Sequence record: MF327005
Direction: 5' to 3' (one strand)
DNA from: Shigella phage Sf19
Length of the DNA: 64,000 nucleotides
Shown in pieces: positions 13,367 to 64,000 of the stretch. The first letter of the stretch is position 1, and each line of letters opens with the position of its first letter. The notes below the pieces were generated by a model. It did not search any database, was not told where the DNA came from, and saw nothing but the letters and a program-made list of their open reading frames with translations. Made by a program: the position numbers and the translations under genes.

Positions 13367-13376
13367 TTATTTTATA

Positions 13377-13393
13377 AGGGGCTGTGTAGCCCC
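13377..13393 (+). promoter_or_regulatory. GC hairpin GGGGCT-GTGT-AGCCCC between the two fibre genes (possible promoter spacer or processing site)
   Basis: Perfect 6-bp stem with tetraloop, flanked by TTTATA (13371-13376) and TAGAAA (13394-13399) at 17-bp spacing; no T-run. Confidence 0.3.
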
Positions 13394-13411
13394 TAGAAAG
13401 AGGATTTATAA

Positions 13412-15790: not shown

Positions 15791-15798
15791 TTACCTTG

Positions 15799-15827
15799 TT
15801 GACTAACTGTCAAGATGGTGTTAATAT
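15799..15827 (+). promoter_or_regulatory. sigma70-like promoter TTGACT-17-TAATAT
   Basis: Hexamers at 15799-15804 and 15822-15827; 10-bp inverted repeat CAAGATGGTG/CACCATCTTG (15811-15820, 15845-15854) overlaps it. Confidence 0.5.
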
Positions 15828-15876
15828 TTCTTAGTAGGTATTCTCACCATCTTGGCTCAAGAAGTAAGGTGATTAA

Positions 15877-20438: not shown

Positions 20439-20530
20439 AACTACCTCCTATATAAAATTTTGTATACATTTGAGTATAAAAATAAGCTATAACACCTGAC
20501 TTGTCAACAGATTTTATAGCTTATTTGGCA

Positions 20531-20790
20531 GATTTTTTATAAGGCTACTGCCATCCTTCCGCACCCGACCTGACCTCGCCCAACCTTACCTGACTGAACC
20601 ACACCCGACCAAACATCACTTAAAAACCCTTTTCAAAGACTCTTAAGTGATGTAATCGAATTTTTATGTAGCTCCGATTAACTACCCATACCTAACCCCA
20701 CCTTGCCACACCGAACCAGACCAAACCCAGCCTCATTAAAAGACCCTTTTAAAGACCTTTTAAAAAGGAGCCTCCGAAGAGGCTACCTAG
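20531..20790. repeat. composite structured non-coding element, copy A
   Basis: No ORF >=60 aa; two C+A-rich tracts with 10-bp phased ACC units (20551-20610, 20683-20732), 11-bp-stem inverted repeat (20613-20653), hairpin (20653-20680), AT-rich quasi-palindrome; homologous to 21906-22190. Confidence 0.7.
20761..20787 (-). terminator. rho-independent terminator (minus-strand sense)
   Basis: On minus strand AGCCTC-TTCG-GAGGCT followed by CCTTTTT; directly after stop of 20796-21236. Confidence 0.55.
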
Positions 20791-21905: not shown

Positions 21906-22190
21906 AGATTTTTAACGTGGCTACTACCATCCACCCTTACCTCACTTTACCTAACCTGACCTTACCAGACCCAACCGGACACTACCCTACCTAGCGAAAC
22001 CTCATTAAAAGACCCTCTTTAAAGACCTTTTAAAAAGGTGAGTCTCATTTTAATGTAGCTGAGACTAACTACCCTCACCAAACCGGACCAGACCCAACCC
22101 AGCCATACCAGACCATACCACACCCAACCGAACCGAACCTTACCGAGCATCACTTAAAACCCTTTTCAAAGACTCTTAAGTGATGCTGGT
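21906..22190. repeat. composite structured non-coding element, copy B
   Basis: Same modules as copy A in different order: phased tracts 21932-22001 and 22070-22139, quasi-palindrome 22000-22038, hairpin 22041-22066, inverted repeat 22147-22186. Confidence 0.7.
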
Positions 22191-22406
22191 GAGTACCCGT
22201 TGGTTTATGCTGCTCAGTATACTCACCAAATTTTCTATGTCAACAACTTTATATTAAAAATTCTCTGACTACTGCATTTACTACAAATGATAACAGAGTA
22301 AGGGCTAAGGCTGATTTGTATGTTATGCTTAACAGTTTACTTATGAAGTAAGATAATGATAAAACAACAAAAACAAACAGGATAATTGCGCTAAACATGC
22401 TAACCT

Positions 22407-27400: not shown

Positions 27401-27659
27401 TTTTACTCCCTCTCAAATCATTCTGGGTAATACCCTACAGCAATTTTCTGCAAAAAGCAAGTTGACAAACTGCTTGACAAGGTGTTAGTCTTTTCGAAGT
27501 GGGTTTTATCTTAATAGACTCCCTTTATAGATTAACTATACAGTTTCTTTAAAAGTCTTAAAAGATTTTTAATAGCTTTTAAAAAGCTTTAAAGTTATAT
27601 GTATAACATACATAAAGATAAGAGATTAAAATCTTTATAGATACTTAACAGAGGCAATC

Positions 27660-32256: not shown

Positions 32257-32285
32257 TTGACAAGGGAGTACGAAGTCTGTAAGAT
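32257..32285 (+). promoter_or_regulatory. sigma70-like promoter TTGACA-17-TAAGAT
   Basis: Consensus -35 at 32257-32262 and -10 at 32280-32285; spacer and downstream form inverted repeat GGAGTAC/GTACTCC (32265-32271, 32287-32293). Confidence 0.5.
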
Positions 32286-32336
32286 TGTACTCCTTGATAG
32301 TTGAGTTGGAAGTTAATTTGAGAAAGAGGTATTAAA

Positions 32337-38686: not shown

Positions 38687-38741
38687 TTTGAATAACTATG
38701 AGGGTCGTAAAAGACCCTCTAAAATTAACTTGGAGAAAAGT

Positions 38742-40329: not shown

Positions 40330-40522
40330 ACGTTTATGGGATGGTTTTGTTGAAGATGCTCCGATGATTGCTCTGGCATTCATGGTTACTAGCCTGTTTA
40401 CTGATTTAAAACAAGGTGCTCTCTTTGGAGCTATGCTAGTATGGGTTATCTTTGAGATATTAGATATCAAACATGATTTGAGTGGAAAGCTTAAAAAGCT
40501 TATTGAAAAGTTTTCTAAGTAG
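40322..40522 (+). CDS. small membrane protein
   Basis: 66 aa with hydrophobic segments. Confidence 0.35.
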   Translation: MLKRLWDGFVEDAPMIALAFMVTSLFTDLKQGALFGAMLVWVIFEILDIKHDLSGKLKKLIEKFSK

Positions 40523-40533
40523 AATTAATATAA

Positions 40534-40556
40534 GGGTCTCTTCGGAGACCTTTTTT
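40534..40556 (+). terminator. rho-independent terminator
   Basis: GGGTCTC-TTCG-GAGACC followed by TTTTTT; same hairpin as 36409. Confidence 0.65.
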
Positions 40557-42716: not shown

Positions 42717-42785
42717 GTAGTTGACAAGGTGGTGTAGGTCTTGATAGGCTTACATCACCTTTTTTATTGAGTATGGAATTAACGT

Positions 42786-44584: not shown

Positions 44585-44896
44585 ATGGAAAAGATTTATA
44601 ACACTCGTAAAATTCAGATTTCTATCCTGTGCCAGTTTATGGCTGATAAACACAAATCCCACTATTGTGGTACAGGTTTCCTTACTTTAGGTGGTGGCTA
44701 CATTAGCTTTAAAGAAGCTGTGAAGATGTACAACGAGCACCCTGAAGATGACAAAGAGTTGAAACAACTGAAGCTTACTTATGACAAGAAGCATAAGAAA
44801 ATTGTATGCTTGAACAACCTTATCAAGCCAACTGAAAACGTTTATGATGCAATTGGTGAGGAAGGTTTCTTAAAAGTCTTGAAAATAGCTCAGTAA
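44585..44896 (+). CDS. hypothetical protein
   Basis: 103-aa ORF. Confidence 0.45.
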   Translation: MEKIYNTRKIQISILCQFMADKHKSHYCGTGFLTLGGGYISFKEAVKMYNEHPEDDKELKQLKLTYDKKHKKIVCLNNLIKPTENVYDAIGEEGFLKVLKIAQ

Positions 44897-44909
44897 ACGT
44901 ATATGATTA

Positions 44910-44934
44910 GGGAACTGTAAAAGGTTCCCTTTTT
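44910..44934 (+). terminator. rho-independent terminator
   Basis: GGGAAC-TGTAAAAG-GTTCCC followed by TTTTT. Confidence 0.6.
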
Positions 44935-46627: not shown

Positions 46628-46635
46628 CAACTTTA

Positions 46636-46651
46636 GGGGCTGAAAAGCCCC
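46636..46651 (+). other. GC hairpin GGGGCT-GAAA-AGCCCC between the two NAD-pathway genes
   Basis: Perfect 6-bp stem with GNRA-type loop; no T-run, so function unclear. Confidence 0.35.
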
Positions 46652-46671
46652 ACTTTGAGAGAGATAAAAAG

Positions 46672-48489
46672 ATGACTAAATCAATCTATGCAGTACCAGC
46701 AGGTCTTAATGCAGATGCTTATAAAGCGGGTCATATCTATCAGTATCCAGATGCTACACAGTATCTTATGTTGAACTTAACACCTCGTGGAGATAAATGG
46801 TTTAACTCTCCGTTAGAGATTGATGGTGTTGTAGCTTTTGGTATTCAGCGTTTTGTAAAAGACTATCTGGTAGACCACTGGAATGCAACGTTCTTTGAAC
46901 GTGATAAGAAAGAAGCCATTGACGAAATCTTGGAAATCATGAATGGTGTCCTTGGTGCAGATGCTATTGGTCGTCAACATTGGGAAGAACTTCATGACTT
47001 GGGTTACCTGCCTGTTGAAGTCTACTCTGTAGAGGAAGGTACAATTGTCCCTATGCGTGTCCCGATGATTGTCTTCAAAAACACTGTAGAAGGATTCCAT
47101 TGGGTAGCTGGTTATCTTGAAGATGCTTTCTCTGCTGAAATCTGGAAGGCTTGTACGATTGCAACTATTGCACTGCATTACAAACGTATCTGTAAGCAAT
47201 GGGCTGATAAGACCTGTGACAATGACTTCCATTTACCTTGGCAGTGTCATGACTTTGCAATGCGTGGTATGTCTGGCTTCACAGATGATGCGTTTAACGC
47301 AGTAGGTCACCTGACAAGTTTTAAAGGTACTGACAGCTTCCCTGCTGTATATACAGCTAAACGTGCATATGGTCAGTTTATGAATGTAGGTGAGATTGGT
47401 AACTCTGTCCCGGCTACTGAGCACTCTGTGATGTGTGCAAACATCTCATGGAACAGTCTTAACAAAGAGGTAAGTGATTGGCATCTATCGCATTCTGACA
47501 ACTTACTTGATGCAATGCGTTGGCGTGGTGAGGTAGAAACTTTCCATCGCCTTCTGACAGAAGTTTACCCAACTGGTATTGCAAGTGCCGTATCAGATAC
47601 TTACAACTTCTGGCGTACTGTTACACAGATTCTGCCAGAGCTACGTAATGTAATCCTGAATCGTGATGGTAAGTTGGTAATCCGTCCAGACTCTGGAGAC
47701 CCTGTTCACATTGTCACAGGTTACAAAGCCATTGAATGGGAAACTGCTAAGTCAATGTTCTATAAGCACATGAAAGAGCTTGCACCGAACAATACACATC
47801 TGCATGACACAATCTTGAATTGTGAAATGTCTGATATTGGCTTTGGGTTCTCTGCTTGGCTAATCTCTGAAGGTTATGAGATGGTTGTTGATAAAGAAGA
47901 TTTTGAATCTGCTGATACAATCAACCTTATTACTGCTCAGAAGACTGGACAGTTTACTGTGAAGCGTATGCTGACAGCAGAAATTGACGGAGCTATCCAC
48001 ACGCTGTATAACATCTTTGGTGGCACTGTTAACTCCAAAGGGTACAAAGTACTGGATGAGCACATTGGGCTAATCTACGGTGATTCTATCACTCTGGAAA
48101 GGGCTAATGAGATTCTGTCACGTCTTGCTGATAAAGGTTTTGCAAGTTCTAACGTAGTGTTTGGTGTAGGCTCATACACCTATCAGTACCTGACTCGTGA
48201 CACCTTTGCATTTGCTGTTAAAGCAACTCTTGCACAGATGGATGGTCAAGAAATTATGCTGGCTAAAGACCCTAAAACTGACAGTGGTCTTAAGAAGTCT
48301 GCTTTTGGTGGAGTTGTCCCTATGTGGGATGGTGACAAGCTGGTAGCTGTAGATGGTTTTGGCTTTGCAGAGTTTGAAGGTGCAATTGACAACTGTCATA
48401 GTGCTTTGAAACTGGTATTTAGCAACTCGCAACCTTATGGTTACATTAACCTGCGCGATGTTCGAAATACTATTGACAAGCAACTTTAA
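46672..48489 (+). CDS. nadV: nicotinamide phosphoribosyltransferase-like protein (NAMPT/NadV family)
   Basis: Blocks matching NAMPT as recalled: HDFAMRGMSG, FKGTDS, VPATEHSV, VSDTYN, VIRPDSGDP, YGDSI, FGVGSYTYQYLTRD. Confidence 0.85.
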   Translation: MTKSIYAVPAGLNADAYKAGHIYQYPDATQYLMLNLTPRGDKWFNSPLEIDGVVAFGIQRFVKDYLVDHWNATFFERDKKEAIDEILEIMNGVLGADAIGRQHWEELHDLGYLPVEVYSVEEGTIVPMRVPMIVFKNTVEGFHWVAGYLEDAFSAEIWKACTIATIALHYKRICKQWADKTCDNDFHLPWQCHDFAMRGMSGFTDDAFNAVGHLTSFKGTDSFPAVYTAKRAYGQFMNVGEIGNSVPATEHSVMCANISWNSLNKEVSDWHLSHSDNLLDAMRWRGEVETFHRLLTEVYPTGIASAVSDTYNFWRTVTQILPELRNVILNRDGKLVIRPDSGDPVHIVTGYKAIEWETAKSMFYKHMKELAPNNTHLHDTILNCEMSDIGFGFSAWLISEGYEMVVDKEDFESADTINLITAQKTGQFTVKRMLTAEIDGAIHTLYNIFGGTVNSKGYKVLDEHIGLIYGDSITLERANEILSRLADKGFASSNVVFGVGSYTYQYLTRDTFAFAVKATLAQMDGQEIMLAKDPKTDSGLKKSAFGGVVPMWDGDKLVAVDGFGFAEFEGAIDNCHSALKLVFSNSQPYGYINLRDVRNTIDKQL

Positions 48490-48503
48490 AACAGTATGAT
48501 AAG

Positions 48504-48525
48504 AGGCTCCTACGGGAGCCTTTTT
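48504..48525 (+). terminator. rho-independent terminator
   Basis: AGGCTCC-TACG-GGAGCCT followed by TTTTT. Confidence 0.65.
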
Positions 48526-49039: not shown

Positions 49040-49101
49040 CTTGACAGTGGCATCTATAAAATTATATAGTTTGCCACATCGACAACTAAGGAGATATTCT
49101 T

Positions 49102-51481: not shown

Positions 51482-51510
51482 TTGACAGGGGCTGAAAAGC
51501 CCCTTAGAAT
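51482..51510 (+). promoter_or_regulatory. sigma70-like promoter TTGACA-17-TAGAAT with hairpin in spacer
   Basis: Hexamers at 51482-51487 and 51505-51510; spacer is GGGGCT-GAAA-AGCCCC hairpin (51488-51503). Confidence 0.5.
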
Positions 51511-52702: not shown

Positions 52703-52724
52703 GGCTGCTTCGGCAGCCTTTTTT
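52703..52724 (+). terminator. rho-independent terminator
   Basis: GGCTGC-TTCG-GCAGCC followed by TTTTTT. Confidence 0.65.
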
Positions 52725-52726
52725 AT

Positions 52727-52754
52727 TTGAAAAATGTGCAGGTTAGTGTATAAT
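52727..52754 (+). promoter_or_regulatory. sigma70-like promoter TTGAAA-16-TATAAT
   Basis: Perfect -10 TATAAT at 52749-52754 preceded by TG; spacer contains TGTGCAGG motif also found in 56902-57125 repeats. Confidence 0.5.
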
Positions 52755-54018: not shown

Positions 54019-54483
54019 ATGCAAAACATTATTACAGTAGCTATCGATGCTTCCGGTAACAAATCACAGGTAGTTCGTGAGATTATCAAAAGTAATTTCG
54101 ATGGTAAAATCTTTCGTGCAGTAAACGTGAAAGCTGATGGTAACATTCGTGAGTATCGTGCAATGTTGAATGTCACAAAACACGTTAAGGGTGTTGGTTC
54201 AACTACTGCTCATAAAGAAAATCTGATGACTATCTATGATATGGGTATGGCTTCAGAGTTAGGTGCAAAAGGGATTGTACAATCCGGTGCTCCTTACCGT
54301 TCTTTCAATCTGGAAACTGCTCTTATGCTTTCCTTTACAAGTGGTTCTCAGACTACCACTTACCTCTTCACAGATACTGCAACGGTTTCTGCGATTAAGG
54401 ACAATACCATTAAGGCTGGCGTAGCTGCTGCTTCAAAAGCCTCAACAATGGCAGCAAATGTCCTTGCGAAAGTTCTTGGTTAA
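54019..54483 (+). CDS. hypothetical protein
   Basis: 154-aa ORF. Confidence 0.45.
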   Translation: MQNIITVAIDASGNKSQVVREIIKSNFDGKIFRAVNVKADGNIREYRAMLNVTKHVKGVGSTTAHKENLMTIYDMGMASELGAKGIVQSGAPYRSFNLETALMLSFTSGSQTTTYLFTDTATVSAIKDNTIKAGVAAASKASTMAANVLAKVLG

Positions 54484-54494
54484 AGTTATTATAG

Positions 54495-54516
54495 AGGCTC
54501 CTTCGGGAGCCTTTTT
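54495..54516 (+). terminator. rho-independent terminator
   Basis: AGGCTCC-TTCG-GGAGCCT followed by TTTTT. Confidence 0.65.
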
Positions 54517-57298: not shown

Positions 57299-57327
57299 TT
57301 GACTTCATAAATCCAGTCTTATAGTAT
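57299..57327 (+). promoter_or_regulatory. early promoter class I (TTGACT-17-TAGTAT)
   Basis: Followed by ..CATCAACGGGAAACATCCC hairpin and conserved leader AACAATCCTAAACTGGAGAATCTAAAAATG. Confidence 0.55.
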
Positions 57328-57376
57328 TTGCATCAACGGGAAACATCCCAACAATCCTAAACTGGAGAATCTAAAA

Positions 57377-57583
57377 ATGTTATATCAACGTGAGTTAATG
57401 ATTGTTGACAACAACAAAACAAATAAACGTCGTTTCTATATGCTAATTTGTGATGTTTGGCAACGTATCTCAGAAAAGGATTTTGATGAATATGTTGATA
57501 CGTCAATCAGGTCTGATTGTTATTTGACAACTCATACAAGACAGTTTACAAGGCATACAGCAATTTATTATTACAACGTTTAA
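57377..57583 (+). CDS. early small protein
   Basis: 68-aa ORF after class I promoter-leader, GGAG RBS. Confidence 0.5.
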   Translation: MLYQRELMIVDNNKTNKRRFYMLICDVWQRISEKDFDEYVDTSIRSDCYLTTHTRQFTRHTAIYYYNV

Positions 57584-57595
57584 AAAGGCTTGACA

Positions 57596-57757
57596 ATGAT
57601 TAAAGAAAACGATTTAATACAATACAAAGATTTAGACGGATACCCAAAAATTGGTAAAGTCTTCTATCTCTATAAGTCTGCTATGGGTAATGACTGTATA
57701 GCCCTTACAAATAGCGACAAAATAACCATGAAAGATTTTATAAAAATTATTGCATAA
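57596..57757 (+). CDS. small ORF (below track threshold)
   Basis: 53-aa ORF MIKENDLIQYKD...; no own promoter cassette. Confidence 0.3.
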   Translation: MIKENDLIQYKDLDGYPKIGKVFYLYKSAMGNDCIALTNSDKITMKDFIKIIA

Positions 57758-57762
57758 AGTGC

Positions 57763-57791
57763 TTTACATGGGGTTTAAAAGCTAGTATCTT
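57763..57791 (+). promoter_or_regulatory. early promoter class II (TTTACA-17-TATCTT)
   Basis: Part of conserved cassette AGTGCTTTACATGGGGTTT...AAGCCCCAGATAAAGAGCTTTACCAACAATCCTAAACTGGAGAATCTAAAATG. Confidence 0.55.
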
Positions 57792-57841
57792 AAGCCCCAG
57801 ATAAAGAGCTTTACCAACAATCCTAAACTGGAGAATCTAAA

Positions 57842-58222
57842 ATGAAATATCGTGCGCCTAAATTTATCAACAAAGAAAACTTTCGTAGTATCTTAGAGGA
57901 AACTATGAAAGAAAACTTCAAAGGAAAAATAATTGTTGTTCACGCTTACAATTTTAAGTATGATGTTAATGGTAACCGTATTAACCACTACAAAGCTACT
58001 ATGCTTGATGGTACATTATCCGGTGAAAAAGCTATCATAAATGCTATTGCAGGACGTGGTAAAACTGTGATACGATGCGAAAAAAGACGCTATCAAGGCG
58101 GTAAATATGGGTATGAAGATGCAATGTACCATCTTGATAAAATGGGGTATGATATAGAGAAAGCTGGAGTATCTCAAACTATTGGTAGTGATGGCTACGT
58201 TACAGTTTTCAAAATTAACTAA
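57842..58222 (+). CDS. early protein
   Basis: 126-aa ORF after class II cassette. Confidence 0.55.
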   Translation: MKYRAPKFINKENFRSILEETMKENFKGKIIVVHAYNFKYDVNGNRINHYKATMLDGTLSGEKAIINAIAGRGKTVIRCEKRRYQGGKYGYEDAMYHLDKMGYDIEKAGVSQTIGSDGYVTVFKIN

Positions 58223-58231
58223 ATAAAGTCC

Positions 58232-58260
58232 TTTACATGGGGTTTATAGTTAGATAAGAT
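58232..58260 (+). promoter_or_regulatory. early promoter class II (TTTACA-17-TAAGAT)
   Basis: Conserved cassette copy. Confidence 0.55.
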
Positions 58261-58313
58261 AAGCCCCAGATAAAGAGCTTTACCAAACAATAACCTAAAC
58301 TGGAGTATCAAAA

Positions 58314-58571
58314 ATGGCTACTATCAAAAACATCATTGTATCTGCAAAATCTCGTGATGACGCTCGCGCAACTGCTAAAAAATTAAATGGTAAAGTGGTT
58401 GACAACGGAAAAGAATCTGCTGTAAGATGGGGCGTGAAATGTGATAAGGAAATTACTTTAAAACGTAGTTCCTATGACCTTTTCAAAGGTGTAAAAGCAA
58501 TCGGTAGAACTAACGTCTACACGAAGAAAGGTTATAAAATGCACTTATCATTAACTGACAATTTAATCTGA
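58314..58571 (+). CDS. early small protein
   Basis: 85-aa ORF after class II cassette. Confidence 0.55.
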   Translation: MATIKNIIVSAKSRDDARATAKKLNGKVVDNGKESAVRWGVKCDKEITLKRSSYDLFKGVKAIGRTNVYTKKGYKMHLSLTDNLI

Positions 58572-58579
58572 TAAAGTGC

Positions 58580-58608
58580 TTTACATGGGGTTTATAGTTA
58601 GATAATAT
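58580..58608 (+). promoter_or_regulatory. early promoter class II (TTTACA-17-TAATAT)
   Basis: Conserved cassette copy. Confidence 0.55.
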
Positions 58609-58662
58609 AAGCCCCAGATAAAGAGCTTTACTAACCAATAGTCCTAAACTGGAGAATCTAAA

Positions 58663-59175
58663 ATGAATTTTGTTGAAGCTACCTTTGAAGTCCAAAAAGA
58701 AAAATTCACTATCATCTATGAAGCTGTTAATATTTGTGAAGCATCCCATTGTGTGGAGAATTGGAAGTTTACCGATGAGCACAAAGGCGGGGTTACAATC
58801 AAACTTAAAAATCCAGAGCGTAACGGGTACAAATATGCAACTCCACAGCATTACAGCCTTTCACAATTGATGAGTGATTATGCTAAACAAGGCCGCGAAA
58901 ATCCATCTATAGAGGCTTACAAGAGCTTACAAGATGAATTACAAAGAGATTTAGAAGCTAACAGCTATGTGCTATTTGCAAAGGTAGAAGATAAAGAAGG
59001 TAATACGGTATTAAATAGCTTTTCACTTGCTTATGGTTTCGATTGGTGTTATCTTGACGGGGAAGATTTAGATTCACGATTAGAAGAGGAAGTGTCGAAC
59101 TCCGATGGAGAATCTGAAGTAATGGAACGTTTAGAAGCCTTGAAAGATTCTGTTATGAATATCTTTAATATCTAA
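58663..59175 (+). CDS. early protein
   Basis: 170-aa acidic ORF after class II cassette. Confidence 0.55.
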   Translation: MNFVEATFEVQKEKFTIIYEAVNICEASHCVENWKFTDEHKGGVTIKLKNPERNGYKYATPQHYSLSQLMSDYAKQGRENPSIEAYKSLQDELQRDLEANSYVLFAKVEDKEGNTVLNSFSLAYGFDWCYLDGEDLDSRLEEEVSNSDGESEVMERLEALKDSVMNIFNI

Positions 59176-59181
59176 AAGTGC

Positions 59182-59210
59182 TTTACATGGGGTTATCAAG
59201 TTGATAAGAT
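59182..59210 (+). promoter_or_regulatory. early promoter class II (TTTACA-17-TAAGAT)
   Basis: Conserved cassette copy. Confidence 0.55.
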
Positions 59211-59259
59211 AGCCCCAGATAAAGAGCTTTACAAACAATCCTAAACTGGAGAACCTAAA

Positions 59260-59556
59260 ATGTTTATTGCCGCAAACGTTAGAACTAAATTAAGCCAGCT
59301 ATTAAGCAATATTCAATTCATTGAATCCATGCGCCGTACTTCTGAAGCCGTAGAGTGGTATCATGGAAAGATTAACAAAAAAGAAGTAATAATTTGTGTA
59401 TGGAACTTTTGCAAAGAATACAAAAAACCATTGCTTCAGGTTGATATATATGATAACACTAATAAGTCATCGATTAAGACTACTAGAGATATGGTTGATT
59501 CATATGAAATTAGTCACACTGGTAAAGTATTCCACAAAGGTAAAAACAAATGTTAA
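59260..59556 (+). CDS. early small protein
   Basis: 98-aa ORF after class II cassette. Confidence 0.55.
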   Translation: MFIAANVRTKLSQLLSNIQFIESMRRTSEAVEWYHGKINKKEVIICVWNFCKEYKKPLLQVDIYDNTNKSSIKTTRDMVDSYEISHTGKVFHKGKNKC

Positions 59557-59897
59557 TCACATACACTGCAATTTTTATCTCTATTGTGGCGCTCTATAAA
59601 GCTTTGCAAGCGCACAGTATAGCTAATAAGGCACTTACAAGGGATTTAAAAATAAACCTTGTACGGGGCTTTTTAGAGCGTTTGAGCTTAGAACAATTGA
59701 AACGTTTAGAGATGAGCTTTCGATTTAAAGCAGAAACATACCGGATTGATAACATTCTAGATGGTGATTTTAAATTAATCAGTGATTATGACATACTTCT
59801 TGAGTCAATTCAAGACATAAACCTGAAAGATTATTATATTGTAATAGCGCAAGAAATTAATAAAAAAGAGCTTGCAATGCAGAATCAAAACAAGTAA
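59550..59897 (+). CDS. early protein
   Basis: 115-aa ORF, 7-nt overlap with upstream gene; 3' end contains next promoter. Confidence 0.45.
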   Translation: MLITYTAIFISIVALYKALQAHSIANKALTRDLKINLVRGFLERLSLEQLKRLEMSFRFKAETYRIDNILDGDFKLISDYDILLESIQDINLKDYYIVIAQEINKKELAMQNQNK

Positions 59898-59900
59898 AGT
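59872..59900 (+). promoter_or_regulatory. early promoter class I (TTGCAA-17-TAAAGT)
   Basis: Embedded in last codons of upstream gene; identical 44-bp block recurs at 63322-63365. Confidence 0.55.
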
Positions 59901-59955
59901 ATTCATCAACGGGGCAAGTTATAAGCCCCAACAATCCTAAACTGGAGAATCTAAA

Positions 59956-60228
59956 ATGTATACTACTAATGACGGTCGAACTTTGAACGTAACTTTAAAA
60001 CACTATGTAGACGGTGTATTAAACTTTGAAGAGTTAAGAGCAGAACAGCACCTATTAGATTGGCAGGTAGCAGGTCTACAAAAAACCGCCACAGGATATG
60101 GAAAGAAAATTCCTACATCTTGGAAAGTTCGATACCTTGGAAAGTTACGCAGAATTTATCAAGATGTTTACAGTAATAGCGGTGTAAGTTACATTATTGT
60201 TAGTGGTAAAAAATTGTATTTAGTCTAA
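59956..60228 (+). CDS. early small protein
   Basis: 90-aa ORF after class I cassette. Confidence 0.55.
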   Translation: MYTTNDGRTLNVTLKHYVDGVLNFEELRAEQHLLDWQVAGLQKTATGYGKKIPTSWKVRYLGKLRRIYQDVYSNSGVSYIIVSGKKLYLV

Positions 60229-60236
60229 TAAATTGC

Positions 60237-60265
60237 TTTACATGGGGTTATCAAGTTGCTAAGAT
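60237..60265 (+). promoter_or_regulatory. early promoter class II (TTTACA-17-TAAGAT)
   Basis: Conserved cassette copy. Confidence 0.55.
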
Positions 60266-60317
60266 AGCCCCAGATAAAGAGATTTATCTAAAACTAACCT
60301 AAACTGGAGACTAGAAA

Positions 60318-60725
60318 ATGACTAATGTTAATCACAAAGAAGTTGCAATTTTGAAAGCACGTTTGACCATTAACCGCATCAACATTGTAACATCAGCAGC
60401 ACCAGACGAAACACTACATAATATCATCGGTAAAATTCAGGGCGCAGTAGTAGACACAAAACAGCTTAAAGAATCCTTGCAAGATGTAGCAGCAGGAGCT
60501 ATAATTGACGGTGCTCAGTATGAGATGAAAGAAATGCTGTCAAAGTCAAAAGTAATGAATAAAGAACTTGACTTGAAAATGTTTAGATTTGCTGTTAAAG
60601 TGTGGCTATGTGTTGATTTTGATGCAAACTTTGCAATTGCTGATTTCTTTGCAACATGGTTACAGCGTAACTTACCGGTTGAAGTTTTCCGTGAAATCTG
60701 CGATGCAATTTATTCAGAGATTTGA
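60318..60725 (+). CDS. early protein
   Basis: 135-aa ORF after class II cassette. Confidence 0.55.
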   Translation: MTNVNHKEVAILKARLTINRINIVTSAAPDETLHNIIGKIQGAVVDTKQLKESLQDVAAGAIIDGAQYEMKEMLSKSKVMNKELDLKMFRFAVKVWLCVDFDANFAIADFFATWLQRNLPVEVFREICDAIYSEI

Positions 60726-60754
60726 TTGACATTGCAAAAGCATAGTAGTAGAGT
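60726..60754 (+). promoter_or_regulatory. early promoter class I (TTGACA-17-TAGAGT)
   Basis: Followed by CATCAACGGGGCAAGTTAGAAGCCCC hairpin and conserved leader. Confidence 0.5.
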
Positions 60755-60810
60755 ACTCATCAACGGGGCAAGTTAGAAGCCCCAACAATCCTAAACTGGA
60801 GAATCTGAAA

Positions 60811-61059
60811 ATGTTTAATATGTTGAATATCCCTGATACATGCCGACTCTTAACACAACTTGATAACCTTGGCAAGCCGTTTTTATATCATATGCCAGAT
60901 AACACTGCAAAAACTTACAGTTACATTGTAAACCGTTTTACGGCTTATGGTTCAAAGTATGGCTATAATGTCAAGACTCAAAAAGTGACTTTGTTCACAA
61001 GTATTGAAGAGTTACCAACTGTTGCCGTTAAACTAATCTTTACAAAGAAAACTAAATAA
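60811..61059 (+). CDS. early small protein
   Basis: 82-aa ORF after class I cassette. Confidence 0.55.
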   Translation: MFNMLNIPDTCRLLTQLDNLGKPFLYHMPDNTAKTYSYIVNRFTAYGSKYGYNVKTQKVTLFTSIEELPTVAVKLIFTKKTK

Positions 61060-61064
61060 AGTGC

Positions 61065-61093
61065 TTTACATGGGGTTTATAGTTAGATAAGAT
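61065..61093 (+). promoter_or_regulatory. early promoter class II (TTTACA-17-TAAGAT)
   Basis: Conserved cassette copy. Confidence 0.55.
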
Positions 61094-61143
61094 AAGCCCC
61101 AGATAAAGAGCTTTACCAACAATCCTAAACTGGAGAATCTAAA

Positions 61144-61701
61144 ATGAAATGCTTTCATGGTACTACACAAGAAAACTTTGTAAACCTTATCAATGGCGGT
61201 GATAAACCATCAGGAGCTTGGAATTGCTCTGATATGGATGGATGTTTTTACGTCTACCCTGTTAACAAGTTCTATGATGTAGAGAATCTGGATGACGAAC
61301 AAATCACAGATGAAGGTATTAGAAACGCGCTTGATAGCGCAAGCATTACAGCAGCCTATCAAATGAAGTCACAAAAGCTTGTTATCTTGGAACTGGATAT
61401 TCCAGAAGATGATTTACAAGATGACTGGAGCTGTGAGAACATGAGCGACGTAGCAAGCTTTACAGAATATTTCGATAAAGAATGGATTAAAAAGGTTTAC
61501 ACAACTGAATTTAATGCTATGTATGCACCTTTCTTTGTCCCTAACCTAAACAATAGAAATTTAGGATATGTACCAGACGAACTACGCAACATTGCAGAAA
61601 TAGTCCAACGTAGTGATGGGATGAGCAATGTATATTGTGATATCTTTGACACCATGCAATGCAACGTAACAGAAACGGTTATAAACGACTTAACAGCATA
61701 A
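61144..61701 (+). CDS. early protein
   Basis: 185-aa ORF after class II cassette. Confidence 0.55.
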   Translation: MKCFHGTTQENFVNLINGGDKPSGAWNCSDMDGCFYVYPVNKFYDVENLDDEQITDEGIRNALDSASITAAYQMKSQKLVILELDIPEDDLQDDWSCENMSDVASFTEYFDKEWIKKVYTTEFNAMYAPFFVPNLNNRNLGYVPDELRNIAEIVQRSDGMSNVYCDIFDTMQCNVTETVINDLTA

Positions 61702-61764
61702 ACCATAGAATCACACCAGTTCACTAGAAAAGCCCCGCACAGGGGCTTACAAGAGGCTTAAAAG

Positions 61765-61995
61765 ATGCTTACAACAATCTATCTTATCTTATCTATCTGT
61801 AATGGTTCACAATGTGACTTTAAAGGTTTAGAAGAGTTTACAGGTAGCGAAAATAATGCTATTGTTGCCTGTCAGATAGCAAGGCAAGACTACCCAACAT
61901 CGGATGATATCCAATGTTACTATAAGTCAGAAGATGATGAAGGTATTTACTTTGATAGTGTGAATGGTGAATATGAGATTCTTATAGAAAAGTAG
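61765..61995 (+). CDS. early small protein
   Basis: 76-aa ORF with hydrophobic N-terminus; own leader with hairpin AGCCCC-GCACA-GGGGCT and AAGAGG RBS. Confidence 0.45.
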   Translation: MLTTIYLILSICNGSQCDFKGLEEFTGSENNAIVACQIARQDYPTSDDIQCYYKSEDDEGIYFDSVNGEYEILIEK

Positions 61996-62024
61996 TTGAC
62001 ACTGAAAACGCAAGAAAGTAAAGT
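61996..62024 (+). promoter_or_regulatory. early promoter class I (TTGACA-17-TAAAGT)
   Basis: Followed by CATCAACGGGAAACATCCC hairpin and conserved leader. Confidence 0.55.
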
Positions 62025-62073
62025 ATTCATCAACGGGAAACATCCCAACAATCCTAAACTGGAGATTCAAAAA

Positions 62074-62295
62074 ATGTTGCAAGTTCTTAACGTAAAAACC
62101 ATTGATTTTAAATTCTCAAATGTTCGTCGTACCTATTTACAGCCGTTTAGTAAACCTGTTAGGATTCCCAACGATGACGCTAAAAAGTTGATTGATGAAA
62201 TTCTAGCTAATGGCGGTTATCTGGCTAGTCATAAGCAGTATAATGATGAGGATGGAAGCCTGATAAATGAGTTTACATATTATTACTACAAATAA
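62074..62295 (+). CDS. early small protein
   Basis: Start set at ATG 62074 after the conserved leader; track ORF begins upstream within the promoter. Confidence 0.5.
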   Translation: MLQVLNVKTIDFKFSNVRRTYLQPFSKPVRIPNDDAKKLIDEILANGGYLASHKQYNDEDGSLINEFTYYYYK

Positions 62296-62307
62296 CTAAT
62301 AAAGTGC

Positions 62308-62336
62308 TTTACATGGGGTTTATAGTTAGCTAAGAT
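62308..62336 (+). promoter_or_regulatory. early promoter class II (TTTACA-17-TAAGAT)
   Basis: Conserved cassette copy. Confidence 0.55.
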
Positions 62337-62386
62337 AAGCCCCAGATAAAGAGCTTTACCAACAATCCTAAACTGGAGAATCTAGA

Positions 62387-62584
62387 ATGTTATCACTGAT
62401 GCAAAAACTTTCTACCTTGTGGTGTTTAAAAGGTGTAGAGTGTAACCTTAACATGGAAGGTTCAAAGATAGACCTAAAAATAGTATACAATGGAGAAATA
62501 CTATTCTCACAGAATAGCAGTCATCCACACTTCAAAGATAATGCAATTATGGCCGTGAATAATCTGATGGATAGAATTTATTAA
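62387..62584 (+). CDS. early small protein
   Basis: 65-aa ORF after class II cassette. Confidence 0.5.
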   Translation: MLSLMQKLSTLWCLKGVECNLNMEGSKIDLKIVYNGEILFSQNSSHPHFKDNAIMAVNNLMDRIY

Positions 62585-62589
62585 AGTGC

Positions 62590-62618
62590 TTTACATGGGG
62601 TTTAAAAGCTAGTATCTT
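62590..62618 (+). promoter_or_regulatory. early promoter class II (TTTACA-17-TATCTT)
   Basis: Conserved cassette copy. Confidence 0.55.
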
Positions 62619-62669
62619 AAGCCCCAGATAAAGAGCTTTACCAACAATCCTAAACTGGAGAATCTGAAA

Positions 62670-63011
62670 ATGGCCTATGTAACAATTATCACCGATAAAG
62701 AAAATTCGTCATGGTCTACCCAAGTTAACGACAAAATGAAACCTATGCAGTGTCTCAAGTACTTTGAGCAATGGAACAGGGGAGAAGATGTAAGCCCGTT
62801 TCAAGTGATGCAGATTGTACATGTTGACAATGAAGGGAATAAAACTACCCTTAACACTGAATACTATGCTACACGTTTCGAAACTCGCAAATCAGCTATG
62901 CAGGAGTTAAGAGAAAAGGGATATAGTCACATTGCCGCGCTCATTTGGTCTGATTTGCTTAAAAAACAGTCATTAACCTATGTTAAGCCAGAAAAAATCT
63001 TTATAAGCTAA
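62670..63011 (+). CDS. early protein
   Basis: 113-aa ORF after class II cassette. Confidence 0.55.
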   Translation: MAYVTIITDKENSSWSTQVNDKMKPMQCLKYFEQWNRGEDVSPFQVMQIVHVDNEGNKTTLNTEYYATRFETRKSAMQELREKGYSHIAALIWSDLLKKQSLTYVKPEKIFIS

Positions 63012-63139
63012 TCAACAACTTATAAAAATCTTTTGAAAAACTATTGACAATGCCCCTTGACAAGTGTAACTTTGTTCGAGGGGGTTTATCTAAAAGGGAT
63101 TAACTTAATAGATTCTTTATAGATAAGCGTAAAAAGTAC

Positions 63140-63168
63140 TTGCAAAGGTCTAATCATATCTATATAGT
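63140..63168 (+). promoter_or_regulatory. early promoter class I variant (TTGCAA-17-TATAGT)
   Basis: Followed by leader ...CCTAAACTGGAGAATCACTAAATG. Confidence 0.5.
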
Positions 63169-63207
63169 GTCTTCAAAAGGCAACTTCCTAAACTGGAGAA
63201 TCACTAA

Positions 63208-63348
63208 ATGTTAGATATCATTAAAAGCCCTATCCTTTGCGGTATGATTGTTTCTGTTGTGTTGCCATTAGCAATGCTCATCATTGGTGAAATCTCAGAT
63301 AAACTTTTTGATAAAAAACTACTTGCAATGCAGAATCAAAACAAGTAA
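63208..63348 (+). CDS. small membrane peptide (below track threshold)
   Basis: 46-aa hydrophobic ORF; C-terminal MQNQNK codons identical to end of 59550-59897. Confidence 0.35.
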   Translation: MLDIIKSPILCGMIVSVVLPLAMLIIGEISDKLFDKKLLAMQNQNK

Positions 63349-63351
63349 AGT
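63323..63351 (+). promoter_or_regulatory. early promoter class I (TTGCAA-17-TAAAGT)
   Basis: Exact duplicate of block at 59872-59900. Confidence 0.55.
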
Positions 63352-63412
63352 ATTCATCAACGGGGAGGGAGACCTCCCCACTAAACAAAATTCCTAAACT
63401 GGAGAATCTAGA

Positions 63413-63940
63413 ATGAATAAGTTTAATGCTGTTAATGCAATCCGTAGCCGTGAAGTGATGAGCAAGCCTTGTAAAGATACTTGGGAATTTACCTTAAAGA
63501 GCAAAGTTTTTGCAGTTATCACAAAAGGGGAAGATAAGCAGTTTTATGTACACCGACCAAATGTAAAAGCGGTAACAGCCAACAACTTTATGGGGGCTAT
63601 TTCTCTTATTCTGAATGATTATATGGCTATAGTCGCAGAAATTCACGAAATGGCTATTAAGGCAACTAAAAACGAGTTAAACCGCTTTAAAATGGCTTAT
63701 GAGCGCTCTATTAAGTCCCATAATCTTTTTATTGCAATCCACTATACAGGCATGTATGCTATGGGAACGGGTAACCAACAATACCCACTCTATGAAGTGG
63801 AAAACATCTTTACAAGTGACTACCCAACAACTAATTTTAAAATTACGTTAGGGGAAGCATTAAATAGGGGAATTAGGCTTTACGAACAATCTTTAAAAAA
63901 CTTAGAAAATTCCCTTGACGAAATCATCACAAATCTATAA
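63413..63940 (+). CDS. early protein
   Basis: 175-aa ORF after class I cassette. Confidence 0.55.
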   Translation: MNKFNAVNAIRSREVMSKPCKDTWEFTLKSKVFAVITKGEDKQFYVHRPNVKAVTANNFMGAISLILNDYMAIVAEIHEMAIKATKNELNRFKMAYERSIKSHNLFIAIHYTGMYAMGTGNQQYPLYEVENIFTSDYPTTNFKITLGEALNRGIRLYEQSLKNLENSLDEIITNL

Positions 63941-63943
63941 AGT
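63915..63943 (+). promoter_or_regulatory. early promoter class I (TTGACG-17-TAAAGT)
   Basis: -10 overlaps upstream stop codon; conserved leader runs to window end, so the array continues. Confidence 0.5.
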
Positions 63944-64000
63944 ACTTATCAACGGGGAGGGAATGACCTTCCCCAACAATCCTAAACTGGAGACTAGAAA

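Follow-up and report, generated by a model that had tools for sequence, protein, structure and literature searches.

In the early region of phage T7 and at the sib site of phage λ, an intercistronic helix is present in only one transcript isoform and decides the fate of that isoform. Composite elements named PeSLs (promoter-early stem-loops), described in T4-type phages, carry a strong early promoter of the sigma-70-like type that is preceded by AT-rich DNA (Arbiol et al., 2010, PMC2839356; Comeau et al., 2014, PMC4122927). Their stem-loops often pair a G-tract with a downstream C-tract, including some G-T pairs, and are found mostly between the -35 and -10 hexamers or over the -10, but also over the -35, upstream of it or just past the -10; the one stem-loop that was tested matched rrnB T1 as a terminator (Arbiol et al., 2010, PMC2839356). 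PeSLs are repeated in hyperplastic regions and mediate ORF shuffling (Arbiol et al., 2010, PMC2839356; Comeau et al., 2014, PMC4122927). Promoter-coupled terminators of bacteria, in which the DNA of a stem-loop doubles as promoter DNA between tandem genes, were reported in a study that did not consider phages (Fletcher et al., bioRxiv 10.64898/2026.08.19.745784). There, the stem-loop lies at the -35, the T-tract abuts the -10 and the transcript ends about 10 bp upstream of the start; the 3′ and 5′ ends are spaced within 35 bp, with a mode of about 10 bp. Weak terminators gain efficiency from the coupled promoter, and the palindrome can at the same time be a LexA site (bioRxiv 10.64898/2026.08.19.745784).

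The DNA analyzed here is a 64,000-nucleotide stretch (the window) of Shigella phage Sf19 (sequence record MF327005), which megablast places in Mooglevirus of the Ounavirinae, among the Felix O1-like phages. The promoter/stem-loop cassettes that it contains are a known kind of element and are new for Ounavirinae only; in the literature on Felix O1-like phages, no report of such cassettes was found. The Felix O1 paper presents the elements named class II and class I below only as unexplained direct repeats of 57 bp and 39 bp, respectively, and leaves unanswered how transcription gets past the many terminators and how its timing is controlled (Whichard et al., 2010, PMC3185647). Transcript mapping for Felix O1 or other Ounavirinae was not found in the literature either. 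Similar to PeSLs, the cassettes of the window combine a sigma-70-like promoter and an AT-rich upstream region, recognized by sequence match only (e.g., TTGACA-17-TAGAAT), with a stem-loop located in the spacer (51482), around the -10 (class II, 49041, 32257, 15799, 22243) or after the -10 (40503, 44879, 48473, 54464, and the class I 5′-UTR hairpins). The cassettes follow the stop codon of one gene and precede the Shine-Dalgarno sequence of the next, the repeated ones are found amid small ORFs of unknown function, and ORF indels are bounded by them. The differences concern the phage group, Ounavirinae and not T4-like; the additional presence of lone copies, conserved between orthologous loci, at core genes that include rIIA and rIIB (the flagged rIIB copy and four more each occur once, among conserved genes); and the class II helix, which has three parts, measures about 20 bp, and encloses the whole promoter. 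The covariation and strand asymmetry presented below go beyond the work on PeSLs, whereas terminator and promoter activities are here predictions. With the bacterial coupled terminators, the cassettes share the use of the same bases by a terminator-type stem-loop and by promoter elements between tandem genes; however, in the window, the stem occupies the spacer, surrounds the -10 or closely follows it, most copies are devoid of a T-tract, and the class II release point would fall downstream of the start site.

All intergenic regions of the window were listed, and promoter-like and terminator-like sites were searched. A hairpin was counted when its stem was at least 6 long, included at least 4 GC pairs, and started between the -35 and -10+3. 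Such hairpins were present at 17 of the 134 promoter-like sites of the + strand, compared with 1.15 ± 1.0 expected (maximum 4) from 100 dinucleotide shuffles; when the 8 paralogous class II copies are counted once, about 9 independent hairpin/promoter cases are obtained. Intergenic DNA, which constitutes 7.2% of the window, holds 12 of the 26 perfect strong hairpins. A first-pass annotation of the window, made from the sequence, had proposed that hairpins in or around promoter spacers are a shared regulatory device. This idea is supported, considering that the arrangement recurs, is conserved in relatives, and has covarying arms. The promoter and hairpin sequences quoted there are all present at their positions, but the list was incomplete, since the sites at 49041, 40503, 44879, 48473, 54464, 42721, and, on the - strand, 22243 belong to it as well.

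The site from which this proposal came lies in the 79-bp gap between the end of rIIA (51474) and the start of rIIB (51554). The rIIB promoter (51482..51510, + strand; 11/12 match) has an entire hairpin inside its 17-bp spacer: TTGACA (51482-51487) is followed by GGGGCTGAAAAGCCCC (51488-51503), a single T (51504), and TAGAAT (51505-51510). The hairpin (A)GGGGCT-GAAA-AGCCCC(T), at 51487-51504, has a folding energy of -13.5 kcal/mol (z -3.4). In 29 of 30 related Ounavirinae loci, taken from IMG/VR with rIIB as the entry, the arrangement TTGACA-(A)GGGGCT-loop-AGCCCC-T-TA(G/A)AAT is kept, with a spacer of 17 or 18 bp. The loop varies (GAAA, GCAA, TTGA, TCAA), as do the flanks, and a single arm mismatch occurs in two loci. 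The stem sequence shows no change among the 29 relatives, and thus no covariation comes from this site itself. Across these 30 loci, the stems of ordinary terminators vary just as little; therefore, invariance of a stem is not diagnostic of a protein-binding site. The remaining locus (L030), the most distant of the 30 (rIIB identity 57%), has TTGACA followed by another stem, AAGTGGTC...GGCCACTT, with the -10 region inside the loop of this replacement stem. At the rIIA-rIIB junction of Erwinia phage Coenus (59% identity), GGGCTG-GAAA-CAGCCC is followed by TTCTT and no hexamers are present, and the -35 of the Coenus rIIA promoter lies within TTGACAG-TCAC-CTGTCAA. The comparison of L030 and Coenus indicates that the hairpin is the constant element of the junction, while the promoter was added around it or lost. 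The 16-nt hairpin would serve the end of the rIIA message, and the hexamers would serve rIIB. One T separates the stem from the -10, and the 8 nt that follow the stem include 2 T; the predicted release point, 7-9 nt past the stem, would precede the predicted rIIB start site by about 4-6 bp.

A genome-wide motif search, which had been proposed along with the first-pass annotation, found three exact copies of the palindrome GGGGCT-N4-AGCCCC in the window (shuffle mean 0.35), all of them on the + strand and intergenic. The copy between the prs-like and nadV-like genes (46636..46651, + strand; GGGGCT-GAAA-AGCCCC, again GGGGCTGAAAAGCCCC) was correctly annotated as having no hexamers and is not accompanied by a promoter. 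The third copy, AGGGGCT-GTGT-AGCCCCT (13377..13394, + strand; core GGGGCTGTGTAGCCCC at 13378-13393), is located between two tail-fibre-region genes. The promoter that had been assigned to it (13371-13399) is not credible because its TAGAAA lacks the invariant final T and no -10 is found there in relatives, which leaves the hairpin only. Relatives of this hairpin, gathered via neighbouring conserved proteins (a query with the 792-aa tail-fibre protein gave too few), include copies with a TTTTAAG tail (TTTTAAGAGG), a flipped loop (GTGT/ACAC), and a G.U-containing variant. Among relatives of the 46636 hairpin, there are copies with a ATTTTGAG tail, a register-shifted ATGGG..CCCAT, and loci with an ORF inserted instead. 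In the L051 and 46636 variants, pairing is kept by G.U pairs or by the register shift, and the sequence is not. A GC-rich hairpin followed by a U-tract is thus seen in relatives at the homologues of both sites, and the Felix O1 homologue of the 13378 hairpin is listed as the rho-independent terminator t76 (Whichard et al., 2010, PMC3185647, Table 2). AGCCCC itself is a generic 3′ arm, found in intergenic DNA in 14 of its 18 copies and across several hairpin classes.

At other promoters, the stems are different. The rIIA promoter TTGACA-18-TATAGT (49041..49077, + strand) lies inside the hairpin GTGGCA...TGCCAC (49047-49077, z -3.3), within which an inner stem CTATA/TATAG covers the -10. In one relative, GTGGCA/TGCCAC is changed to GAGGTA/TACCTC, i.e., by two compensatory changes, and in another CTATACAG-TTTT-CTGTATAG stands in its place. 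The promoter TTGACA-17-TAAGAT (32257-32285) is nested in the hairpin AAGGGAGTAC...GTACTCCTT (the whole element at 32257..32295, + strand); its stem GGAGTAC/GTACTCC reads AGAGTAT/GTACTCT in Felix-type relatives, with TTGACA and TAnnAT kept. The promoter TTGACT-17-TAATAT (15799-15827) is contained in a hairpin of about 31 bp (15791..15876, + strand; -30.5 kcal/mol, z -5.5) with the core stem CAAGATGGTG/CACCATCTTG at 15809-15856. The outer stem of this element pairs the Shine-Dalgarno sequence AAGGTGA of gene 15877, and does so in most, not all, relatives. On the - strand, the best promoter of the window, TTGACA-16-TATACT (11/12), is overlapped at its -10 by an 11-bp hairpin (22229-22186; the element spans 22186..22243). 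Altogether, five unrelated stems were found at promoters: GGGGCT/AGCCCC, GTGGCA/TGCCAC, GGAGTAC/GTACTCC, CAAGATGGTG/CACCATCTTG, and GGGGTTTAT/ATAAGCCCC. The hairpins also appear to have led to deletions, or to gaps in the assembly, in one publicly deposited genome.

Another group of sites, all on the + strand, joins promoter-like sequences to true terminators. The -10 abuts a terminator hairpin in TTGAAA-17-TAATAT (40503..40553; hairpin 40532-40553), TTGAAA-17-TATGAT (44879..44930; hairpin 44909-44930), TTGACA-16-TATGAT (48473..48524; hairpin 48501-48524), and TTGCGA-17-TATTAT (54464..54514; hairpin 54493-54514). At 42721..42761, TTGACA is directly continued by a terminator hairpin (42726-42761); its loop contains TGATAGGCT, and its stem has a compensatory change in one relative. 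The abutting -10 hexamers are conserved as TAnnAT amid variable neighbouring bases, and at 44879 both hexamers are conserved while the adjoining bases vary in relatives. At 52703/52727, the T-tract overlaps the -35 and is not directly upstream of the -10; the 52727 promoter has no embedded hairpin. The hairpins at 52703, 54493, and 44909 are homologues of the Felix O1 terminators t2, t5, and t124, respectively (Whichard et al., 2010, PMC3185647, Table 2).

The most numerous hairpin promoters are the class II early cassettes, eight of which are located on the + strand at 57755..62640, with the -35 hexamers at 57763, 58232, 58580, 59182, 60237, 61065, 62308, and 62590. Their promoters read TTTACA-17-TAAGAT, TATCTT or TAATAT, and GGGG after the -35 and CCCC after the -10 were seen in all eight copies, in agreement with the annotated GGGG...CCCC around the -10. 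The layout is TAAAGnGCTTTACA-n-GGGG..(-10)..CCCC-AGATAAAGAGCTTTAC, with AT-rich DNA upstream, e.g., ATAAAGTGC before TTTACA-17-TAAGAT. The sequence folds into a three-part hairpin of about 20 bp, which encloses the whole promoter (-23.9 kcal/mol), with a z-score of -4.2 on the + strand and -1.4 on the - strand. Covariation was assessed in 132 copies (105 unique) from 31 genomes, with the arms aligned in register. Among the 105 unique copies, 95% of cells are paired, compared with at most 56% when the 3′ partner is slid by 1-3 columns. The pair types are TA84/AT20, AT82/TA16, and AT36/TG27/TA19/CG18, with GC83/TA12 for the outer pair; G.T is present in 182 cells and A.C in 14. RNAalifold, applied to 45 diverse copies, recovered the three-part helix independently. 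As MAFFT puts a one-base gap wrongly in the 3′ arm of class II, with the result that RNAalifold misses the inner covarying pairs, these pairs were judged from the register-anchored alignment. The flanking TAAAGnGCTTTA motifs were also considered as direct repeats or as two local palindromic operators, which folding and covariation disfavour. The G-C to U-A covariation connects the left half of the first TAAAGnGCTTTA motif with the right half of the second, and since it breaks each local palindrome, one long helix is favoured. The 3′ arm ends at about +1, coinciding with the predicted start site of the embedded promoter.

Class II cassettes are accompanied by six class I early cassettes (57299..63974, + strand), composed of TTGACA, TTGACT or TTGCAA-17-TAnAGT, ATCAAC, a 5′-UTR hairpin, and a shared leader. 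The 5′-UTR hairpins (57338-57349, 59911-59929, 60765-60783, 62035-62046, 63362-63379, and 63954-63974, + strand) have many stem variants at one position among relatives. All 8 class II and 6 class I copies lie within 57.3-64 kb, among ORFs of 55-185 aa. The window has a module, comprising the ORF at 60811-61059 and a class II cassette, that one relative (L008) lacks, with the junction in the shared leader; this was the one junction looked at closely for a cassette-bounded indel. The order of cassettes is different in three relatives (L015, L024, and L028), and a 171-bp ORF indel adjoins a cassette.

Judged by these sequence comparisons, the hairpins are base-pairing elements of the sense strand and not the operator of one regulator. 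Wherever the stems vary (class II, class I, rIIA, 32257, 46636, and 13378), pairing is kept, which implies that pairing is what is selected. The tolerance of G.U over A.C, together with one-sided C-G to U.G changes at 15799, 52703, and 13378, points to sense-strand RNA and not to a symmetric DNA site or a cruciform. The hairpin and the promoter are also separable: at 13378, 46636, and the Coenus junction, a hairpin is found without a promoter, and in L030 a different stem lies over the -10. No match to Rfam was obtained at the gathering score for the whole window, and no tRNA or tmRNA was found. A lambdoid boxB/N-type antitermination hairpin was considered and rejected, as the loop is not conserved (GAAA, GCAA, TTGA, TCAA, TAAA, TTAT; flipped GTGT/ACAC).

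With moderate confidence, we interpret the elements as composite promoter/stem-loop cassettes of the PeSL type, which would finish or shield the message of the preceding gene and start transcription anew. The 5′ arm is always located before the start predicted for the interleaved promoter, and consequently the full hairpin can fold only in read-through RNA from the upstream gene. It is proposed that the inverted repeat would pair in the RNA of polymerases arriving from the upstream gene and would mark the 3′ end of its message. There, the hairpin could terminate or attenuate transcription, weakly when alone, and could also act as a barrier against 3′ exonucleases. RNA polymerase sitting on the overlapping promoter probably helps weak hairpins to stop incoming polymerases. 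Next, the interleaved sigma-70 promoter would restart transcription for the next gene, and its own transcripts, which should never hold the complete hairpin, would be immune to it. Enrichment, conservation, covariation, strand asymmetry, geometry, and the separability of hairpin and promoter are read directly from the sequences, whereas three steps of this scheme are inferred: initiation at the hexamers, arrest or protection of upstream RNA by the hairpins, and immunity through a start inside the hairpin. For the true terminators that abut a -10, a start 6-8 nt past the -10 leaves a stem of 0-5 bp, and the folding energy changes from -12 to -16 kcal/mol for the complete stems to 0 to -5 kcal/mol, with one case of -9. 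Similar to the Felix O1 rho-independent terminators, the nested hairpins of the window have G4/C4-based stems, but unlike them they are without a U-tract: T occupies 0-3 of the first 8 nt, compared with 5-7 for the clear terminators of the window. Although the nested GGGGCT-type hairpins have energies of -12.7 to -13.5 kcal/mol, they lack the U-tract of a canonical intrinsic terminator. Nested hairpins are thus poor intrinsic terminators by the usual rules and, alone, would be weak terminators at best. For class II, the 3′ arm ending at about +1 places any release point downstream of the embedded start site.

The first-pass annotation had suggested two functions for the hairpins, an operator for one regulator and an RNA processing site. 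Applied to the rIIB promoter, the first would mean that GGGGCT-N4-AGCCCC is bound by a dimeric phage or host regulator, which represses this promoter from its spacer. The perfect 6-N4-6 palindrome, with arms that are invariant and a 4-bp centre that is variable in the 29 relatives, identical arms at three sites, and a spacer position ideal for repression would suit such a protein, and a terminator palindrome doubling as a LexA site is on record (bioRxiv 10.64898/2026.08.19.745784). However, two of the three copies are outside promoters and have terminator-like tails in relatives, the stems differ from promoter to promoter and show compensatory changes, and other stems occupy the rIIA-rIIB junction in L030 and Coenus. 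Terminator stems are as invariant as the arms, the L051 and 46636 variants retain pairing and not sequence, and AGCCCC serves as a 3′ arm in several hairpin classes, intergenic in 14 of 18 copies. The strand-symmetric constraint expected for a DNA site is not seen in class II (182 G.T against 14 A.C), while the flagged rIIB stem, being invariant, is uninformative in this respect. The operator reading is not supported and is the least probable of those considered. Tuning of the promoter at the DNA level is also very unlikely; here, the strength of the promoter or its response to supercoiling or ppGpp would be set by a GC-rich spacer, a GC-rich discriminator or an extruded cruciform, and RNA pairing would play no role. 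GC-rich discriminators destabilise open complexes, and GCCCC after the class II -10 is such a discriminator; the arms sit exactly in the spacer and the discriminator. Yet this leaves unexplained the covariation of the arms, the hairpins that occur without promoters, and the asymmetry between G.T and A.C, given that a cruciform needs pairing on both strands; stems of 6-9 bp are, moreover, short for cruciform extrusion.

The processing function suggested in the first-pass annotation was right about the RNA level, but the flagged rIIB hairpin and the two other GGGGCT copies, with 6-7 bp, are too short for RNase III. It can be formulated for the long class II and 15799 helices, which would exist in read-through RNA only and be cut by RNase III or hide a ribosome-binding site, so that processed and promoter-initiated mRNAs have similar 5′ ends or only the promoter-initiated mRNA is translated. 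The lengths and internal loops of these helices (-23.9 and -30.5 kcal/mol) resemble the T7 early RNase III sites, and, for an interrupted helix of about two turns, class II (~20 bp) and 15799 (~31 bp) fit in size, whereas the 6-7 bp copies do not. In addition, the outer stem of 15799 pairs AAGGUGA, the outer stem of class II covaries (GC83/TA12), the 3′ side of the class II helix falls on the predicted start site of the embedded promoter, and the hairpins are without U-tracts. On the other hand, the 15799 outer stem is absent from some relatives. Processing is unlikely; it is compatible with the PeSL-type reading and could coexist with it, but not replace it. That the class II and 15799 elements in particular are 5′-end-dependent isoform switches, with the complete helix only in read-through RNA, is possible but doubtful. 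Their helices appear comparable in size to those of the T7 early RNase III sites and λ sib, while the short GGGGCT hairpins are far too small; and the specificity for one isoform would come here from the 5′ end, by a start inside the helix, and not from the 3′ end as in T7 and λ sib. It is quite unlikely that there is no joint function, i.e., that independent hairpins and promoters were squeezed into short gaps and that the cassettes are mainly recombination sites. Intergenic DNA makes up just 7.2% of the window, hairpins occur without promoters and promoters (e.g., 52727) without an embedded hairpin, and cassette-bounded indels exist. But the same overlap geometry is found at at least 9 independent sites, on both strands, and it persists where the stem sequence is replaced. 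Saving of genome space alone could explain some of the overlap; it is a weak force, since some 20 bp more would be enough to place the hairpin in front of the -35.

The PeSL-type reading extends such cassettes beyond T4-like phages. The covariation, together with the strand asymmetry, is comparative evidence that the stem-loops are selected as RNA structures. Promoter-terminator coupling would then reach phage genomes, in which the elements are small, numerous, and easily mutated. If the isoform switch proved true for the long helices, each gene would be expressed only through the promoter embedded before it, one leader would be common to processed and primary mRNAs, and the arrangement would be a 5′-end counterpart of λ sib retroregulation, reused along a phage early region. 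For the Ounavirinae, which are used in phage typing, biocontrol, and therapy, the cassette reading provides a testable transcription map, in which each transcription unit would finish at a hairpin and the following one would begin at the promoter interleaved with it.

The early region carries repeated class II cassettes, promoters with GGGG after the -35 and CCCC after the -10 hexamer inside a predicted hairpin of about 20 bp. Four segments of the window, at 59881-59909, 60773-60832, 62320-62368 and 63322-63365, are missing from the GenBank record of Sf17 (29, 60, 49 and 44 bp, respectively), and all four gaps start or end within a GGGG/CCCC stem; through one of them, the ATG of ORF 60811 is lost. 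The gaps reflect either assembly errors induced by the hairpins or genuine deletions that the hairpins mediated. A 55-aa ORF (57590-57757) is also present in the window and not in Sf17 (indel region 57585-57754), and its junction, marked by TAAA microhomology, lies immediately 5' of a class II cassette. One relative (L008, 19342-19365) lacks a module consisting of an 82-aa ORF and a class II cassette (window 60811-61143), the junction of this indel falling within the leader shared by the early genes. In three further relatives (L015, L024 and L028), the cassettes differ from those of the window in number and order.

Variation was also found at the GGGGCT-N4-AGCCCC hairpins. In four related loci, the copy at 46636, between the prs-like and nadV-like genes (window 46628-46671), is replaced by a gene of about 170 codons, which may encode a homing endonuclease. 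At the copy at 13378, the arms are the same in two near-identical relatives (L044 and L045), but the loop (window 13384-13387) is reverse-complemented, ACAC vs. GTGT in the window. This loop flip is what template switching or recombination inside a palindrome would be expected to produce.

The intergenic gap at 15791-15876, 3' of the 792-aa tail-fibre-region gene, is predicted to form a hairpin some 31 bp long (-30.5 kcal/mol, z -5.5), in whose outer stem the Shine-Dalgarno sequence of gene 15877 (64 aa) is paired. Any transcript started at the promoter nested in this hairpin would lack its 5' half. Two other intergenic hairpins, GAGGGTC-GTAAAA-GACCCTC (38700-38719, after nrdA) and AAGCCCC-GCACA-GGGGCTT (61730-61748, with reversed arms, C-tract first), have neither a T-tract nor a promoter.

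Two elements, 27441-27600 and 63031-63190, are about 55% identical to each other, and each opens a transcription unit; both share the block TTAATAGAyT..CTTTATAGAT and contain two TTGACA hexamers apiece, together with arms of the CCCC..GGGG type or related to it. The motif TGTGCAGG(T/A) is repeated directly 3' of terminators (52735-52745, ~56950 and ~57030) and is kept in relatives, as TTTGTGCAGAGTGCTGTATAAT, within the spacer of the 52727 promoter, which has no embedded hairpin; it could be the signature of a distinct class of promoters. Long intergenic stretches at 20530-20730 and 21920-22160 carry degenerate ACC-rich repeats (ACCTGACC, ACCCAACC and alike). A search of the whole window found no tRNA genes, whereas Felix O1 has 22 (PMC3185647).

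The leader AACAATCCTAAACTGGAGAATCTAAAATG, with GGAG as its Shine-Dalgarno sequence, is near-identical in 15 early genes (15 sites in window 57350-63995, e.g., 60784-60813). Because it is so tightly conserved, its sequence suggests that these genes could be under common translational or RNA-cleavage control.
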